Position numbers and translations under genes: made by a program. The notes under the pieces were generated by a model. It was not told where the DNA came from. It did no database searches and worked only from the letters and a program-made list of their open reading frames with translations. DNA of 64,000 nt from Deltaproteobacteria bacterium (lineage in GTDB: Bacteria > Desulfobacterota > Syntrophobacteria > BM002), in contig JAFDGZ010000006.1 of the NCBI GenBank assembly GCA_019309045.1, positions 2,066 to 66,065 on the forward strand, read 5' to 3'. Positions 4,413 to 10,683 of the stretch are shown here, one piece after another; position 1 is the stretch's first letter; the number at the start of each line of letters is the position of its first letter.

Positions 4413-5681
4413 TCAGCTGGCGAACCTCAAATCGCTGCTTGCGTCGTAAAAGACATTGGCAGGCTGCTCACCGGCCAGCACAAGGCGATAGCTGTCAACC
4501 ATTATGCCGGCGATGATCTGATTTGTCATAATGACGGAGGGCTCTGGCCGGTATATACACGACTCTCGCAACCGTCTGAATGAAGAGATCTGTCTTTCCG
4601 CAACAATCTCTTGCAGACCCAGAAGCTCAGCAGGGGTACCATCATTGCTGCCGGGGCTGTAGACAATGACCTGGCCTGCAGCCACGTTGCTGCCGCCGCT
4701 CACCAGCATCTTTCCCGTAAGCTGACACAGTTCGCTTATAACAATTCTGCTTTCAAAATTGTCCACACAGTCGAAGACCACATCAAACCCAGAGATGTCA
4801 CTGTCCCTGCTCAGATAGTCCACCACAGCTACCGCCTCTGTGGTGAACATAGAATTGAGTCGCCTGGCAAGGATTTCAGCTTTGTTGGAACCAACGCCGG
4901 CATGCAATAGCACCTGTCTGTTGAGGTTGGTTACTTCCACCACATCGGGATCAATAAAGGTAATGTGTCGAAAACCAGAAAATCCCAGGGCAAGGCCGAC
5001 AAAGTTCCCGAGCGCTCCCGCCCCTACCACACAGATCTTCTTGGTGGCACTGTCGATGACCACCTGCTTGCTCTTGTAAGAAACGACTTCACTGGGTACT
5101 GGCCATCCCAGCAAAACGTTCTTGGTATCTTCCAATGCCAGACCAGCAGCAATTATCCCCAGAATGCCGTCATGCACACATTCTCCCGGCAGCTGTCTGG
5201 CACAGACGATCTCTTCGAGCTCCTGCCACTCGCGCCCTTTCCTGTAGGTGAATACCTTGCAGCCCTGCTCATTGTTTTTCTGGTAGCAGAAGGCCCTGAC
5301 AAGTGGAACGTCATCCTGGTAGGCTCTGTTGAGCATCAGCTTGTTGGCAAGGCCAAACTGACTCAGATCAACTATTAGCTGGCAGTCACGAAAAATATCG
5401 TCCCACATGGGATGCGTGTAGAATCCCTCGACATGCGTCAATCTCAGCTTGGGATTCAGCTGACTTGCCGCGTCTGCGAGCCCCTCGTGCAACCATGGAG
5501 CAATCACCACCAGGTTACAGATGCCAAGAGCTGCAGCGGCCAGCAAGTAGTGAGAGGCGAGGTAGTCGGAATCGCCAACAACACCTATCTTGGCGCGCTC
5601 GAGAACACTCTGATTCCAACCCGGAATCCGCAGCTGTCTGTCCAGTCTATCTTCAAACATGGTTTGTCTTGCCAGCGGCAA
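4413..5681 (-). CDS. E1-like (ThiF/MoeB/HesA superfamily) adenylyltransferase with a degenerate N-terminal and a canonical C-terminal Rossmann domain
   Basis: C-terminal half has KICVVGAGALGNFVGLALGFSGFRHITFIDPDVVEVTNLNRQ and VFDCVDNFESR, the classic ThiF/E1 nucleotide-binding motifs. N-terminal half has the same fold pattern (RQLRIPGWNQSVLERAKIGVVGDSDYLASHYLLAAAALG) but GxGxxG is degenerate and there is no NLNRQ. TTG start at 5681, with an alternative ATG at 5660. Confidence 0.85.
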   Translation of the reverse strand: MPLARQTMFEDRLDRQLRIPGWNQSVLERAKIGVVGDSDYLASHYLLAAAALGICNLVVIAPWLHEGLADAASQLNPKLRLTHVEGFYTHPMWDDIFRDCQLIVDLSQFGLANKLMLNRAYQDDVPLVRAFCYQKNNEQGCKVFTYRKGREWQELEEIVCARQLPGECVHDGILGIIAAGLALEDTKNVLLGWPVPSEVVSYKSKQVVIDSATKKICVVGAGALGNFVGLALGFSGFRHITFIDPDVVEVTNLNRQVLLHAGVGSNKAEILARRLNSMFTTEAVAVVDYLSRDSDISGFDVVFDCVDNFESRIVISELCQLTGKMLVSGGSNVAAGQVIVYSPGSNDGTPAELLGLQEIVAERQISSFRRLRESCIYRPEPSVIMTNQIIAGIMVDSYRLVLAGEQPANVFYDASSDLRFAS

Positions 5682-5717: not shown

Positions 5718-6518
5718 CTACATCCTTTCAATTAGCTCTGGCGGTGGAGAGGTCACTGGTTTAATTTTCTCCGCTATTTCGCCAGCCAGCGCCCGCACCT
5801 CAGCAGGCGATAGATCCAGGGCGGAGTCCACAACTGTCATCTCGGCCTCCTTGCCTGCAATAGTAACCTCACCAGAAAGTATTCCTCTTTTCTTGTAATA
5901 GATCTCCTGGGAATGCCAGCCTTTGTCCCCAATAACAATACAGTAACAAAAGCTGCCGTAAATGGTCTCCAGGACCATAGCCTCTTCAACAGGCTTGTCC
6001 GTAACTAAACAGACGCTCCCCTGGCGCAAGTCCTCAACACTATAGTGATCTTTGCGCAACAGAACTAGATCCCGAATTACCAACTCTTTCTTGGCCACTG
6101 GTCGCCTTACTAGAGGACTGACATAATCCAGCACTGTGAGATGGTTCTCTCTGTCAATTTCTGAGAACATTTCATACTGCAGTTCCCCATGTGAGTGAAT
6201 CCAGCCGTTCACTATCAAATGCGATGGCAAGCTCTCCAAAAATGCTGCTATACTTTCAGGCTTCAGCTCTGTGTGATCCTGAAAATTAGCCTGATCTCGG
6301 GGCAGTCCCACATCAGTGATCACCTCCGGATTGTCTTTGCTCGCTAGAGTAAAGCCATACCATTCAAAACTGTCTTTGAAGATTTCCTTGATCAGTTCAC
6401 ACGTCCTGTAAGCCTTATTTTTTGCATAGGCGGTGATCTGCACCTTTTCAGGCAGCGAATGCAATGGCAACTCCAGAACGCTCTTCCGTTTCAATTGCGC
6501 TAGACTCTTCAGGCTCAT
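5718..6518 (-). CDS. JAB/MPN (JAMM) metallopeptidase-domain protein with a ~130-aa C-terminal extension
   Basis: JAMM signature read directly: upstream Glu ([10 protein letters not shown]), then [18 protein letters not shown] (HxH...SxxD). The ATG overlaps the stop of the upstream AAA+ gene (ATGA at 6515-6518). Confidence 0.7.
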
Positions 6519-7618
6519 GAAAGCCTCGCTTTCACGTAGCTGCCATTTACCACGAATTCTCCCTGGTGTTTACCCGGCAGCTCGTACATCTTGTCCAGCA
6601 GTACCCTGTGCAGGATGCTCGTCAAGCCTCGCGCCCCAATGCCCTCTTTGGTGGCATGCCGCGCCATTTCGGTCAAGGCCTCATCCGTAACCTTGAGCTC
6701 TATATCCCAGGCCCTCAGATCATTGCTGTAGGCTCGCAAGGGACTATCTTCACTCTTGGTAAGAATCTCTTTCAAATTCTGGGTGGTCAGAGAATTGTAG
6801 ACAACCCTCACCGGAAAGCGGGCCATGAGTTGTCTTTCCATGCCAAAAGAGACCAGGTCTTCGGTGAGGAGGTATTCTTTCCAGTCACCTTTGAGCCCGT
6901 GCTCCTCCATGCGGTTCTTGACAATATCATCGATCTTGTCATATACCCCGCCAGCAATGAACAGCACGTGTCTGGTGGACAACATCAACCTCTCTCTGCC
7001 AAGTTCGATGGTATTTTCTACGCCTTCCACCATTTTGAGGAGCCCTTTCTGTACTCCTTTGCCGGAGACATCCTTGTAAGCCGCCTGTTCAGTGGCTATC
7101 TTGTCAAGCTCATCCAGATAGACAATTCCCATCTGGGCCACTTGTGAATTGCCTCCTCCTGCTATGAGAAGATCTACCAGGATATCGCTGGTGTTTTGCC
7201 CCACATATCCTACCTCACTGAATTTGGTCATGTCCTCCACCACAAAAGGCACACCAACCAGTGCCGAGGCGGTCTCCCCGGTGTAGGTCTTGCCGCAACC
7301 AGTGGGACCTATCATCAATATGTTCGCCTTCGGCGTCCTGGTTTGCCTCAGTGCTCTGTCAATATCTTGACCATTCTCTACCATGGCCTCCTTCAGTGCG
7401 TGCCCCAGCCTGCGATAATGGTACGCAATTGCCGTAGCAATAACCCTCTTGCCCTTCTCCTGGCCAATAATGAACCTGTCCATTTCTGCTTTGAGCTCTG
7501 CCGGGGTCTTGTCAAACTCCACAATATGTTCCACCGTTTCATTGGCCTGCAGCTCCCGAAGCTTATCTATCTTTTCTTGAATCCTTCTGCGGCTTTCACG
7601 TGATATACTCTCATACAT
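6515..7618 (-). CDS. ClpX-like AAA+ ATPase (unfoldase) lacking the zinc-binding domain and the IGF loop
   Basis: Present: [23 protein letters not shown], Walker A GPTGCGKT, pore-1 GYVG, Walker [11 protein letters not shown], and GARGL. The track ORF starts at GTG 7657 with no RBS. ATG at 7618 (MYESISR) has a GAGG about 10 nt upstream and is preferred. Confidence 0.85.
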
Positions 7619-7777
7619 ATCAGGCAACCTCGTTTCTACTGGTTGGCCACCAGCCACTGCTGATCATAATTGCCCAAAATACTAAGGTCTTCTCCTGCTG
7701 TTGCAACTACATGGGCCCCGCTGCCGCCATCAAGACCACACCCCAGTCGGTATGACCGCCTTGATGGCTAGCGTCCT

Positions 7778-8218
7778 TCAAGCTCGCTTCGACCCGTTGG
7801 CATACTCTTTCGACAAAAGCACGCAGAAATGCAGCGATGACAGCTGGTGCTCATCGAGTCTGGCGTTCTGTTGATAAAGCCGGCAGGCAAGAAGGAGTTC
7901 TTCCGGTGAATTTGCAAATTGGACATAAGGATTATCCACTATGTCCAATATTGCTTCAGTAAGGCGATATGTTTTTTCTGACACAAGAGAAAACAATGGA
8001 AGATCCATTGACTCTTTTTCCACCGTGCTCAATTTCTCTACAGATCCGTCGTGCTCCATAGACCGTTCGAGGTCTCGGATAAATGTTTCATCGAGTCCGT
8101 ACTTTTCCACAACTGCGCTTACCCTGGAAAATGGCGTTCTGCGAAACACCTGCTTCTGCCTTTTGCGGGCCCTTGTGCTGATAATTCCTTGCAAAAGGTG
8201 TTTCTCAGAGGTACTCAT
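7778..8218 (-). CDS. Hypothetical 146-aa protein (predicted mostly helical, basic N-terminus), member of the Ubl-like operon
   Basis: ORF with ATG at 8218 preceded by GAGGTGGA. Overlaps the upstream gene by 14 nt. I recognised no family motif. Confidence 0.55.
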   Translation of the reverse strand: MSTSEKHLLQGIISTRARKRQKQVFRRTPFSRVSAVVEKYGLDETFIRDLERSMEHDGSVEKLSTVEKESMDLPLFSLVSEKTYRLTEAILDIVDNPYVQFANSPEELLLACRLYQQNARLDEHQLSSLHFCVLLSKEYANGSKRA

Positions 8219-9359
8219 TTTTTACTTCCACCTCACCCGAGATAATTTTCGGATGATCGGCCGGAATGCGGTAGTCGTCAAAATTGACTATCCTTACATA
8301 GGTGGTAACCCTGTCGAGGCTGTGATAACCGTTTCGCCTTCTGGGGTTGTAGCCATGGTAGAGGGCAAGCAGCCCCAATTCCAGGGAGCGTATCACGTTT
8401 TGGGCAGAAAATTCTGTTGCCGGTGTAAACTGTTTCATACAAATTTCCTGCTTGGCAGCATGTCGGAAAAGAAAAGGGTGTTTGTACCTGTCGAGCACAT
8501 ACGGTCTAGGGGTACCGCTGGTGGATACTGCCACCCGGCAATCAGGAAACAGGTAGAGACGGCCATAATAGTCCTTGAGGGCGTATTCACCCGTATGCAC
8601 GTATACGTGATAATCTCCAGCACGTCCTTCTCTGAACAAGCCAAAGTCATCTAGACTGCAAGAACCCTTATCTGCTATGTACAACAGCAGCGCGACATAC
8701 TTCTTGTCCAATTTCGCCAGCTTTTCCCTCTCTGCCACCTCCTTCTGCAGACGATATTTCTCGGCGACCCTGAACTGCACTTTTGACGCCGCCTCCAGCC
8801 AGTCCTGTAATTCTTTTGCCTCCATAAGGCCGTCTGCAGGGTAGTGATCCTGCGAATACGTATCAGCAAAACTCTCGAGCAGTGTCTGAAGTGAATTGTC
8901 ATCGCGATACCTTTCCGCCTCGCGGTAATAGGAAGCTGGCACGCTCAGCCTTTCCGCCAGTAGAGCCAGGATTTCCTCGCTGTTCAAGGTGCGTCGGTGC
9001 AGACCTTTGCGCCTCCCTACAAAGTGAGGCATTATCTGAAAAATAATAGTCTGCAATTTGTCATCAGGCCCAAAGGCGTCTCTAACCCAGGAGTTTACCT
9101 TGCTGTCGAGCAATCCCGTCCGCAGTCTATGGTAGGAATCCGGGTAGAGCCGGCCATACTGACGCACCAGTGACTCGAGTGTCACCGACCTCACAAAGAG
9201 CTGCCCTGCAACCTGGAGAACGACAGGAAGAGATTCTTCAGAGCCACTTTCTGCCAATACAGTGGCCTCTTTTTGCACCTCAGGATCGAAGAGCAATGGC
9301 ACATAGAGCACCCCTTGCTGTACGACAAAGGGACCATTATTCGCAAGTAGTTTAGCCAT
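8205..9359 (-). CDS. Hypothetical protein with a candidate UBC/E2-like C-terminal domain
   Basis: ORF 8205..9362 (TTG), with ATG at 9359 lying 3 nt after the stop of the upstream small gene. The C-terminal region PRPYVLDRYKHPFLFRHAAKQEICMKQFTPATEFSAQNVIRSLELGLLALYHGYNP aligns by eye to the E2 core ([26 protein letters not shown]...[15 protein letters not shown]). Confidence 0.5.
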   Translation of the reverse strand: MAKLLANNGPFVVQQGVLYVPLLFDPEVQKEATVLAESGSEESLPVVLQVAGQLFVRSVTLESLVRQYGRLYPDSYHRLRTGLLDSKVNSWVRDAFGPDDKLQTIIFQIMPHFVGRRKGLHRRTLNSEEILALLAERLSVPASYYREAERYRDDNSLQTLLESFADTYSQDHYPADGLMEAKELQDWLEAASKVQFRVAEKYRLQKEVAEREKLAKLDKKYVALLLYIADKGSCSLDDFGLFREGRAGDYHVYVHTGEYALKDYYGRLYLFPDCRVAVSTSGTPRPYVLDRYKHPFLFRHAAKQEICMKQFTPATEFSAQNVIRSLELGLLALYHGYNPRRRNGYHSLDRVTTYVRIVNFDDYRIPADHPKIISGEVEVKNEYL

Positions 9360-9362
9360 CAA

Positions 9363-9737
9363 CTACCAATCTCCGCCTTCCTGAGGCTTGATCGCCCGGA
9401 TGGGCACATAAAGATAGTTCTCACCAATTTCAGTCTGCTGTCTCTCCACATAATTAAGCGCCCTATCGTCGATCTCCTTGCCTCTGCTGAGTAGTTTGCC
9501 TCCCTTGAGCTGCCGACGAATCTCTTCTACTATTTGCCGCTCTTCAATGCTCAGGTCTTCCCTGGCCAATGTCTGCTCGCACAGTTGCCTCAGGCTCTTG
9601 CCCTCATATGTACCAGGCTCGTAAATATCAACCAGCCCTTCCCTTGCCTGCCCAGCCATTATCTCTACTACCAGTGGCAGCAGCCTCTCTTCTTTTGCCC
9701 GCCTTGCCACATCCTGGTCCAGCTCTACATCAGCCAT
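9363..9737 (-). CDS. Small protein with a ubiquitin-like C-terminal half ending in GG-DW (candidate modifier precursor)
   Basis: ORF 9363..9752. ATG at 9737 sits 6 nt after GGAGGAG. The C-terminus is KLLSRGKEIDDRALNYVERQQTEIGENYLYVPIRAIKPQEGGDW. It resembles ubiquitin 43-76 and has a diglycine two residues before the stop. Confidence 0.55.
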   Translation of the reverse strand: MADVELDQDVARRAKEERLLPLVVEIMAGQAREGLVDIYEPGTYEGKSLRQLCEQTLAREDLSIEERQIVEEIRRQLKGGKLLSRGKEIDDRALNYVERQQTEIGENYLYVPIRAIKPQEGGDW

Positions 9738-9981
9738 GCTACTCTCCTCCATGCATTTCTTTCGCCAATTTTCATTATTTTAACTCATGGGAAACACAAA
9801 AGGTAAGCAGCGAACATGTCAGTGTCGATCAAGGCGTCACCCGAGGACGGGAGATGATATGTATCTCCAGGGCATTGGACCACTGATGGTTTGCTATCTC
9901 CTTTTCTAGTCATCATCTCCCAGAGGCAGCATTGCCATTCATAGAAAAGAACACCCGTCAAATGGCTCATGCCAAATGGAG

Positions 9982-10683
9982 TCAATCTTTGCACACAGTT
10001 TCACGGGTAAAATCACGAGCCGCGGCGACTCCTTCCTTTTCGGCAAATAGCTGAATCCACTCCTGCACTCGCGCTTCACCGTAAGCATCTTTCCAGGCAG
10101 CCACTATAAGGTCCACTGGAACGTCTGCAAAGGTACCGTGGTGGGCAACGTATTCCATGAAGCGGTTGTTCTGCGCGTCGTAAGGGTGGAAGAGGGAGTC
10201 ATGCCGCCCATCAAACTCCAGAGGCGGCACTCCGTGCCGCTCGCAAAGCTCTCGATTGAAAGTAGGCGTGGCCTTCACCCATTTGCCTTCTAGATAGAAC
10301 TCGACGAAGCCGTGATACACAAAGAGGTTGCTGCCCAGAAAATCAAGAAGCTGCTTTGTGGCCAGATGATTGCGTACCGTGGCAAATCCGAGCCGCGTCG
10401 GGATGCCACAGGCGCGGGCCAGAGCGCACAACAATGACGCCTTGGGAACGCAGAAGCCCCTGCCCTTTGCCAGTACTTTGCTTGCCTGGTAGTGGACCGG
10501 CAGGTGAAAGGCGCAGTATGGATCGTAGCGGATACCATCTCGCACAGCCAGATATAGTCTCACTGCCTGTTCAACCTGATCGTAGCAGCCAGCGACTGTT
10601 TGTTTCGCATACCTTTCCACAGGTAGCTGATCGCTGTCTATGATTGCCGTAGGCTGTAGATAGATTGCCCTGCTCTCTTTCAT
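9982..10683 (-). CDS. Transglutaminase-like cysteine peptidase-fold protein
   Basis: Transglutaminase-core pattern: GRGFCVPKASLLCALARACGIPTR (Cys), then VYHGFVEFYLEGKWVKATP (His), with downstream Asp. ATG at 10683. Confidence 0.8.
   Translation of the reverse strand: MKESRAIYLQPTAIIDSDQLPVERYAKQTVAGCYDQVEQAVRLYLAVRDGIRYDPYCAFHLPVHYQASKVLAKGRGFCVPKASLLCALARACGIPTRLGFATVRNHLATKQLLDFLGSNLFVYHGFVEFYLEGKWVKATPTFNRELCERHGVPPLEFDGRHDSLFHPYDAQNNRFMEYVAHHGTFADVPVDLIVAAWKDAYGEARVQEWIQLFAEKEGVAAARDFTRETVCKD

Follow-up and report, generated by a model that had tools for sequence, protein, structure and literature searches.

This analysis concerns a gene for a 385-residue protein within a window of 64,000 nucleotides, the whole stretch of DNA that was analyzed, from a Deltaproteobacteria bacterium (GTDB lineage Syntrophobacteria, BM002; GenBank assembly GCA_019309045.1, contig JAFDGZ010000006.1, positions 2,066 to 66,065 of the forward strand). 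The gene lies in a cluster of six, together with the genes for a small modifier precursor, a 146-residue protein (p146), a ClpX-like AAA+ protein, a protein with a JAMM/MPN+ motif and a two-domain ThiF-type E1 (Table 1). An earlier note on the window had proposed a candidate UBC/E2-like catalytic core with an HPF...EIC pattern at the C-terminus of the 385-residue protein, referred to below as the E2-like protein. The open reading frame (ORF) exists and contains the peptide quoted for that proposal, residues 265 to 340 of the protein; it is found on the minus strand, which the note had left unsaid. One codon downstream of the TTG start, at position 9359, an ATG gives rise to the 384-residue form of the protein that is present in the protein database.

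Homologs of the E2-like protein numbered 618 at E ≤ 0.001. They come mostly from metagenome-assembled genomes (MAGs) of Thermodesulfobacteriota and Binatia, all are annotated as 'hypothetical' and none carries a Pfam domain. In 30 close homologs (41–48% identity) H295, P296 and C308 were invariant and the conserved part was the C-terminal third, with the blocks FPDCRV, YKHPFL, QxIC and GY..RRRNGYHSLD. Across 80 genome copies the mean column identity was 0.70 for residues 218–350, compared to 0.50 for residues 1–217. When 1.84 billion representative proteins were searched with a C-terminal domain profile, 170 relatives (representatives at 50% clustering) were obtained, with lengths of 400–590 residues. 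In the full-length matches among them the conserved domain was again C-terminal, and the region preceding it varied in length, from ~200 to 410 residues in the distant relatives. When the 51 most distant relatives (17–27% identity) were aligned, His295, Pro296 and Cys308 were the only invariant columns, and the invariance of HP and Cys was reproduced on an alignment of the trimmed domains. By a rough estimate, ~3% of proteins of this size carry a lone HP...C string by chance, so that its meaning rests on its conservation. The persistence of HP...C across such distant relatives is not due to chance and shows that it is a genuine and strongly constrained site.

The residues surrounding this site are kept to different degrees. 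The position following His-Pro is occupied by Phe in nearly all members and occasionally by Ser, Gly, Ala or Tyr. Regarding the E2-core pattern listed in the earlier note, the HP motif and the Cys 13 residues further on are conserved and the beta-meander and the subsequent helix are predicted, whereas the two turns held up less well: of the 'PxP turn' P287 alone is conserved, and the 'NP turn' (GYNP) is not kept, the family consensus being GY[NSD]x. A conserved RRRNGYHSLD motif is present near the C-terminus; we know of no E2 with a C-terminal motif of this type. Other assignments of the conserved residues were considered and rejected. Cys275 in the FPDCRV block is invariant in the close subfamily only and is Cys, Ala or Met in the distant relatives, which rules it out as the catalytic residue and likewise rules out a zinc site composed of C275, H295, C308 and H347. 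A caspase-like QxxC arrangement or a papain-like dyad is ruled out by the residue spacing and the predicted fold. In the alignment of the distant relatives, no His C-terminal to Cys308 was conserved across the superfamily.

The full-length AlphaFold2 model of the E2-like protein had a predicted local distance difference test (pLDDT) score of 81.5, and a separate model of residues 218–385 scored 79. Both models contain a helix, short antiparallel strands in a beta-meander, the loop with HP and Cys308 and then a 17-residue helix, Cys308 being placed between the last strand and helix 320–336. The predicted spacing from Cys to the helix is 12 residues; together with the 13 residues from His to Cys, this is close to UbcH5, where the respective values are 14 and 10. 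In a Foldseek comparison of the domain model with the PDB, 49 of the top 50 matches were E2 or UEV chains, including UbcH7, UbcH5, Ubc13/Mms2, Rad6, Ube2g, Ube2w and Ube2k and the UEVs Mms2 and Uev1a, and E2s also headed the PDB search with the full-length model. No peptidase or HECT/RBR folds appeared among the PDB fold matches, and no BilB chain among the PDB sequence or fold matches listed. The combined evidence of the invariant HP...C, the predicted topology and the dominance of E2/UEV chains among the top matches is best accounted for if the last ~170 residues form an E2/UBC-like catalytic domain whose active-site cysteine is Cys308. The earlier note had named two outcomes that would speak against its proposal, a Cys that is not conserved among homologs and an unrelated fold; Cys308 proved invariant and the top fold matches were E2/UEV chains, though at template modeling (TM) scores of about 0.3.

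For the region preceding the domain (residues 1–217), no sequence or fold match was found in the PDB. The earlier note had suggested a substrate- or partner-binding module for the N-terminal ~210 residues. The variable length of this region is consistent with that suggestion and it may possibly be a target- or partner-binding module; the PDB searches provided no match from which a fold could be assigned. Residues 11–61 (9180–9332) are predicted to follow the order beta-beta-alpha-beta-beta, which is an order seen in beta-grasp (ubiquitin-like) domains.

The strongest support for the E2 reading is provided by the genomic context. Scanning one genome per species revealed 110 relatives, and the best 80 loci among them were examined; these and four loci fetched earlier were searched by tblastn with the six window proteins. 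Throughout the 84 loci the E2-like gene was found clustered on one strand with the five partners. The modifier and p146 were each detected in 78 loci, followed by the ClpX-like gene (70 loci), the E1 (66) and the JAMM-motif gene (65). Where a partner went undetected, the contig was in several cases short or truncated. The genes come in two orders, modifier–E2-like–p146–ClpX-like–JAMM–E1 or the same order with E1 at the front, and the place of E1 is the sole difference between them. The hosts belong mostly to Desulfobacterales, Syntrophobacterales and Desulfobaccales, with some Binatia, Methylomirabilota and Acidobacteriota, and one of them, Desulfoferrobacter suflitae DRH4, is not labelled as a MAG. 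Neither a rhodanese, a cysteine desulfurase nor a biosynthetic gene forms part of the conserved cluster in the 84 loci, and no protease gene is found within it. A scan for promoters and terminators remained at chance level. A phage or defense origin is ruled against by the flanking genes inspected, which are metabolic, by the guanine-cytosine (GC) content of the cluster, which matches that of its flanks, and by the absence of relatives of the E2-like protein from the viral contigs searched.

Table 1. Features of the six-gene cluster in the window, with two distant operons for comparison (positions in the last two rows are those of the locus named)
Feature	Position	Strand	Remark
Modifier precursor, 129 aa	9363-9752	minus	ends ...KPQEGG-DW
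Modifier Gly126-Gly127	9372-9377	minus	followed by the 2-residue tail Asp-Trp
E2-like gene	8205-9362	minus	385 aa, TTG start
E2-like N-terminal region, residues 1-217	8712-9362	minus	predicted mostly helical; beta-beta-alpha-beta-beta start
Candidate E2-like catalytic domain, residues 218-385	8208-8711	minus	holds HP, Cys308 and GY
His295-Pro296 of E2-like protein	8475-8480	minus	
Cys308 of E2-like protein	8439-8441	minus	candidate catalytic residue
GY motif of E2-like protein	8349-8354	minus	
p146, 146 aa	7778-8218	minus	start overlaps end of E2-like gene
ClpX-like AAA+	6515-7657	minus	Walker A/B, GYVG
JAMM/MPN+-motif protein, 266 aa	5718-6518	minus	start overlaps ClpX-like stop
ThiF E1, 422 aa	4413-5681	minus	two-domain, loop Cys375
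E1 loop Cys375	4557-4559	minus	candidate thioester site, just before PxPxxxxTN
L085 operon	8229-9890		167-aa protein, E2-like, Prok-JAB, ThiF
L088 operon	7402-9328		141-aa protein, E2-like, ThiF, Prok-JAB

A few genes accompany the cluster in particular genomes. In the window, a gene for a 233-residue transglutaminase-core protein (9982–10683, minus strand) lies just upstream of it; such a gene adjoins the cluster in none of the 84 related loci and is thus not part of the conserved arrangement. Clusters of the Binatia/Methylomirabilota type (L003, L006, L009 and L014) contain an additional ORF of ~110 residues between the E2-like gene and p146 (9261–9596 in L003) and a 57-residue ORF ahead of the E2-like gene (7792–7965 in L003). 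The E2-like proteins of these clusters carry an insertion of ~25 residues near the C-terminus.

Directly upstream of the E2-like gene, where the earlier note had placed a Ubl-like gene, lies the gene of the 129-residue modifier precursor. Its Gly-Gly end and short tail agree with that description; a relationship to ubiquitin, ThiS or MoaD did not reach significance. The modifier is more conserved than the E2-like protein, its homologs being 58–77% identical. In 23 of them RAIKPQEGG was invariant and followed by variable tails, and of 71 family members 70 had P[QE]EGG, the tails ranging from 0 to 151 residues. This combination of an invariant Gly-Gly with variable tails is, as far as the alignments tell, what a precursor with processing after Gly-Gly would look like. 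In loci of the Desulfobacca type (L001, 7144–7962; L005, L010 and L013) a GNAT acetyltransferase domain of ~150 residues is fused right after ...KPQEGG; by analogy, the modifier-GNAT protein looks like a ubiquitin-fusion-style precursor, of which the released partner could be an enzyme. A second invariant Gly-Gly is found in the middle of the modifier, in RQLxGGK (residues 82–86, 9495–9509).

The JAMM motif of the 266-residue protein consists of Glu52, His108-x-His110 and Ser119-x-x-Asp122, and all five residues were invariant in 63 of 63 sequences. The spacer from the second His to the Ser comprises 8 residues, where 7 is usual, and Pfam Prok-JAB matched weakly over the motif region (E 0.16). 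The motif makes the protein a candidate peptidase for trimming the tail of the modifier and for removing the modifier from conjugates. In the E1, ThiF matches residues 214–405 with an E of 1.9e-36, corresponding to the active adenylation domain. The N-terminal half is Rossmann-like and degenerate (GVVGDSD), with no Pfam match. The best PDB matches of the E1 were Uba1, Uba4, MoeB and UBA3, it scores well on ThiF/MoeB models, and the Cys at position 375 was conserved in 60 of 61 sequences.

The ClpX-like AAA+ protein is the best conserved of the cluster, with 62–75% identity in most loci. Its Walker A (GPTGCGKT) and Walker B (DE) motifs are intact and the pore loop GYVG is found at 7199–7210. 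It scores 264 bits on the NCBIfam ClpX equivalog, for which the cutoff is 359 bits. The alignment to ClpX structures begins at residue ~43–51, and the zinc-binding N-domain is absent. A gap lies opposite GIGF/LGF and no [ILMV]GF was found, so the IGF loop, by which ClpX docks to ClpP, is missing as well. The stop codon of this gene overlaps the start codon of the JAMM-motif gene in ATGA (6515–6518), and the junction between the two is 0–3 nucleotides in most related loci. The remaining partner, p146, has a basic N-terminus, the motif NPY..F..SPEE and no conserved Cys, and gave no match in Pfam. Whenever detected, it is located just downstream of the E2-like gene, between that gene and the ClpX-like one. 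It is possibly an adaptor, a substrate or an E3-like factor.

Two distant E2-like relatives, L085 and L088, were examined in operons devoid of an AAA+ gene. The JAB proteins of both operons are recognized by Pfam Prok-JAB. In L085, as in two further distant loci, L086 and L087, the small upstream protein has ...[QE][EQ]GG near its C-terminus, followed by a tail, and that of L087 is visibly homologous to the modifier of the window; the small protein of L088 ends in ...SSVGANE, without Gly-Gly. From the make-up of the L085 and L088 operons and the small proteins ending in Gly-Gly, the E2 slot of modifier/JAB/E1 operons is taken by at least some of the distant family members, and the subfamily of the window has added p146 and the unfoldase. 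A genome search for close relatives of one distant member found none. A ParE-type toxin gene adjoins the L088 operon and a Ser/Thr kinase gene the L085 operon. In contrast to the subfamily to which the window belongs, the E2-like family as a whole may extend to mobile or conflict-related systems.

Taken together, the 385-residue protein is likely to be the carrier of E2 type in a bacterial pathway of ubiquitin-like conjugation and may combine the roles of E2 and E3. That it is a thioester-forming E2 of a new family is probable in view of its context, notably Cys375 of the E1 and the Gly-Gly end of the modifier. By none of the tests applied was it a member of UQ_con, Prok-E2, Cap2 or BilB, and its membership in the E2 family is unproven.

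Several results have to be set against this attribution. The Asn of the HPN motif, a stabilizer of the oxyanion or the loop in E2s, is replaced in the family (HPF). Scans with Pfam, including UQ_con (PF00179) and Prok-E2_A to Prok-E2_E, found nothing in the full protein or in its domain, even with the threshold relaxed to E ≤ 10, and those with NCBIfam and PADLOC gave no match either; the E1-E2 models of PADLOC match the ThiF part of the separate E1 (residues ~205–342), not the 385-residue protein. No family was found when the 51 distant relatives were scanned with the family libraries, and PDB profile searches with the full-length, domain and broadened profiles retrieved no E2, the matches obtained (shikimate dehydrogenase, a phage tube protein and, via 'RHPFL', AKT kinases) being due to chance. 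Comparison by hhalign with six eukaryotic E2 sequences gave P values of 0.16–0.56 and thus no sequence evidence. The sole alignment obtained with the narrow profile (P = 0.16) paired YKHPFL..QEIC..helix with YHPNI..GSICL..alpha2, the pairing already proposed in the earlier note, and is consistent with the E2 reading yet does not count as evidence; the broader profiles gave P = 0.38–0.56. The structural matches are individually non-significant: the best Foldseek hit had E 0.035 and a probability of 0.77, none reached E ≤ 0.001, and the E2/UEV chains superposed with TM scores of 0.30–0.35 and root-mean-square deviations of 7–8 Å. The domain model exceeds a canonical E2 in its number of strands and is of low confidence at residues 338–357, and the fold search of BFVD was essentially noise, with 3 E2s in the top 50. 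As for the partners, the modifier profile had no match in the PDB and its hhalign comparisons with ubiquitin/NEDD8 and with ThiS/MoaD were not significant, and the profile of the JAMM-motif protein also remained without a PDB match, so that neither a beta-grasp fold of the modifier nor a JAMM fold of its partner was confirmed. The coupling of the cascade to the unfoldase is speculative, the suggestion coming from synteny alone.

With these points in mind, the following sequence of reactions can be proposed. The 129-residue precursor would be cut after Gly127 by the JAMM-motif protein to produce the Gly-Gly end, a step suggested by the invariant Gly-Gly with its variable tails and by the invariant JAMM motif. 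The two-domain E1 would then adenylate the carboxylate of the modifier and bind it as a thioester on Cys375, a chemistry that we infer. Transthiolation would transfer the modifier to Cys308, located, as in UBC enzymes, in the loop that connects His-Pro to the long helix. Selection of the partner or target may be the task of the ~215 N-terminal residues, which are variable, and the modifier would be discharged onto an amine of the target. More speculatively, the ClpX-type hexameric unfoldase, which presumably cannot bind ClpP as ClpX normally does, would most likely recognize tagged proteins, perhaps with p146 as adaptor, and unfold or remodel them. The JAMM enzyme, translationally coupled to it, would recycle the modifier in a manner resembling Rpt/Rpn11 of the proteasome or Cdc48.

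Part of this gene set would also fit a sulfur-carrier pathway, in which the JAMM protein trims the modifier, the ThiF protein adenylates it and a thiocarboxylate is made as in CysO/Mec+ or QbsE/QbsD/QbsC, with Cys308 as a persulfide relay or sulfur acceptor. A Gly-Gly end with a cleavable tail in combination with a JAB and a ThiF/MoeB-like E1 is the signature of sulfur-carrier operons too (Iyer 2006, PMC1779556, Table rows 4a–e), and both the good scores of the E1 on ThiF/MoeB models and the metabolic neighbors agree with it. We consider such a pathway quite unlikely, however: the conserved cluster is devoid of a rhodanese, a cysteine desulfurase and a biosynthetic gene, the modifier is long (~125 residues) and highly conserved, and the E1 has the duplicated architecture, inactive plus active, that is typical of conjugation E1s. 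The best fold matches of the 385-residue protein are moreover E2s, and it is not obvious what a conserved unfoldase would do in sulfur transfer.

Alternatively, Cys308 might serve in another step, the protein being a Cys-dependent E3-like ligase acting on the E1~modifier, or a cysteine peptidase or deconjugase, with a superficial likeness to E2s. Since the peptidase slot is already filled by the JAMM-motif protein and proteins of the 385-residue type are the sole candidates for the E2 slot in the minimal distant operons, this appears unlikely in spite of the failure of every sequence-level test of E2 homology, the TM scores of about 0.3 and the large size of the protein with its additional conserved RRRNGYHSLD, which is not known from E2s. 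The fold search, which returned essentially E2/UEV chains and neither peptidase nor HECT/RBR folds, points in the same direction, and the His-to-Cys spacing of 13 residues misfits the known dyads, the Cys preceding the His in papain-like enzymes and the two being about 40 residues apart in caspase-like ones. An inert scaffold with an E2 fold, similar to UEV or RWD domains, that holds the modifier or bridges E1 and unfoldase would account for the UEV chains (Mms2, Uev1a) among the fold matches, and conjugation by the E1 alone, which this would imply, exists in archaea (SAMP/UbaA). A Cys that never varies, accompanied at 17–27% identity by no invariant residues other than His-Pro, is the signature of an active site and not of a scaffold, which makes an inert role highly improbable.

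A more far-reaching description of the locus can also be formulated, which we put forward tentatively and with more doubt than confidence. The six-gene cluster would be a housekeeping, non-defense tagging system of the ubiquitin-like type in Thermodesulfobacteriota and a few other phyla, in which a new E2 family, represented by the 385-residue protein as a combined E2/E3, works in mechanistic coupling with a JAMM deconjugase and with a ClpX-type unfoldase that is independent of ClpP. It would thereby be a bacterial counterpart of ubiquitin-Cdc48 or of the 19S particle (Rpt/Rpn11), based on a different AAA+ clade. CBASS Cap2, Bil and Bub have recently been shown to be true conjugation systems, all of them linked to phage defense. 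To these, the present analysis adds another E2-like family of 170 representatives that is apparently unmodelled, Pfam, NCBIfam and PADLOC having no model for it, and an operon type that fixes a ubiquitin-style cascade to an unfoldase and a JAMM-motif protein. Were this coupling functional, it would constitute a pathway of tag-dependent unfolding or remodeling in bacteria outside the Pup system and would bear on the question of how ubiquitin signaling and AAA+ machines came together. The modifier-GNAT fusions found in nature suggest co-expression in the style of ubiquitin fusions in bacteria, and the compactness of the six genes together with a named-strain host, Desulfoferrobacter suflitae DRH4, makes reconstitution possible. 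The operon type appears to be undescribed: a literature search of incomplete coverage, which leaves an earlier description possible, found no ClpX- or AAA+-linked E1/E2/JAB operon, and the survey of Iyer 2006 (PMC1779556) contains no AAA+-linked operon of this kind, only a ClpS-linked ThiS/JAB operon.

When compared to canonical UBC/E2 enzymes (UQ_con; UbcH5, UbcH7, Ubc13, Rad6), which are the best and almost the sole PDB fold matches of the domain, the E2-like protein shares the predicted topology of helix, beta-meander, active-site loop and long helix, the invariant His-Pro followed ~13 residues later by an invariant Cys in ...IC[LM]... and then a helix, and the partnership with an E1, a modifier ending in Gly-Gly and a JAMM-motif protein. 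It differs from them in having HPF in place of HPN, extra strands, an N-terminal extension of ~215 residues and a GY..RRRNGYHSLD segment instead of the usual C-terminal helices, and it shows no detectable sequence or profile similarity to them.

Among bacterial systems, Bil operons of Types I and II encode BilA (a ubiquitin-like protein, Ubl), BilB (E2), BilC (JAB) and BilD (E1) (Chambers et al., PMC10557695). The relative gene order modifier, E2, (JAB), E1 is the same here, the E1 likewise has an inactive and an active adenylation domain, and trimming of the modifier precursor to a C-terminal Gly and a thioester relay would be expected in both. The signature of BilB is a Cys followed by His ('CEHH'), the first domain of BilD is Pfam Prok-E2_C (PF14459), and the Cys of BilD resides in an inserted helical CYS domain stabilized by zinc (PMC10557695). 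In the E2-like protein, on the other hand, the conserved His-Pro precedes the Cys and there is no CEHH, and the E1 has its Cys in a short loop and no Prok-E2_C match. Bil operons are found in defense islands and contain neither an AAA+ gene nor p146, whereas this six-gene cluster lies among metabolic genes, with host-like GC content and no relatives in viral contigs. The assignment of the gene to the position of BilB, made in the earlier note, is therefore reduced to a positional likeness, with p146 and the ClpX-like gene as additional members. Bub operons (6E/DUF6527; Ye et al., PMC11601596) are similar in that they encode a bacterial cascade of Ubl, E1 and E2, the E2-like proteins being divergent, and in that a JAB processes the precursor in Type I. 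They use Ser/Tyr oxyesters, fused Ubl-E2 or E2-E1 proteins and the serine protease BubE (PMC11601596); here, the E1 and the E2-like protein each have a conserved Cys, the components are encoded by separate genes, DUF6527 is absent and an unfoldase is present. In Cap2 of CBASS the E2 domain is fused to the E1, whereas the two are separate genes in this cluster.

Finally, the combination of a covalent tag with an AAA+ unfoldase recalls Pup-Mpa/proteasome, SAMP/JAMM/PAN, the 19S particle (Rpt plus Rpn11) and Cdc48. Pup differs in relying on glutamine-synthetase-like ligases, not on E1 and E2. The unfoldase of the cluster belongs to the ClpX/HslU clade and not to that of PAN, Rpt, Mpa and Cdc48, it is devoid of the ClpP-docking IGF loop, and no protease gene accompanies it. 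What the cluster also has in common with the archaeal and eukaryotic members of this group is a candidate JAMM peptidase, the genes for the unfoldase and the JAMM-motif protein here being joined by their overlap.

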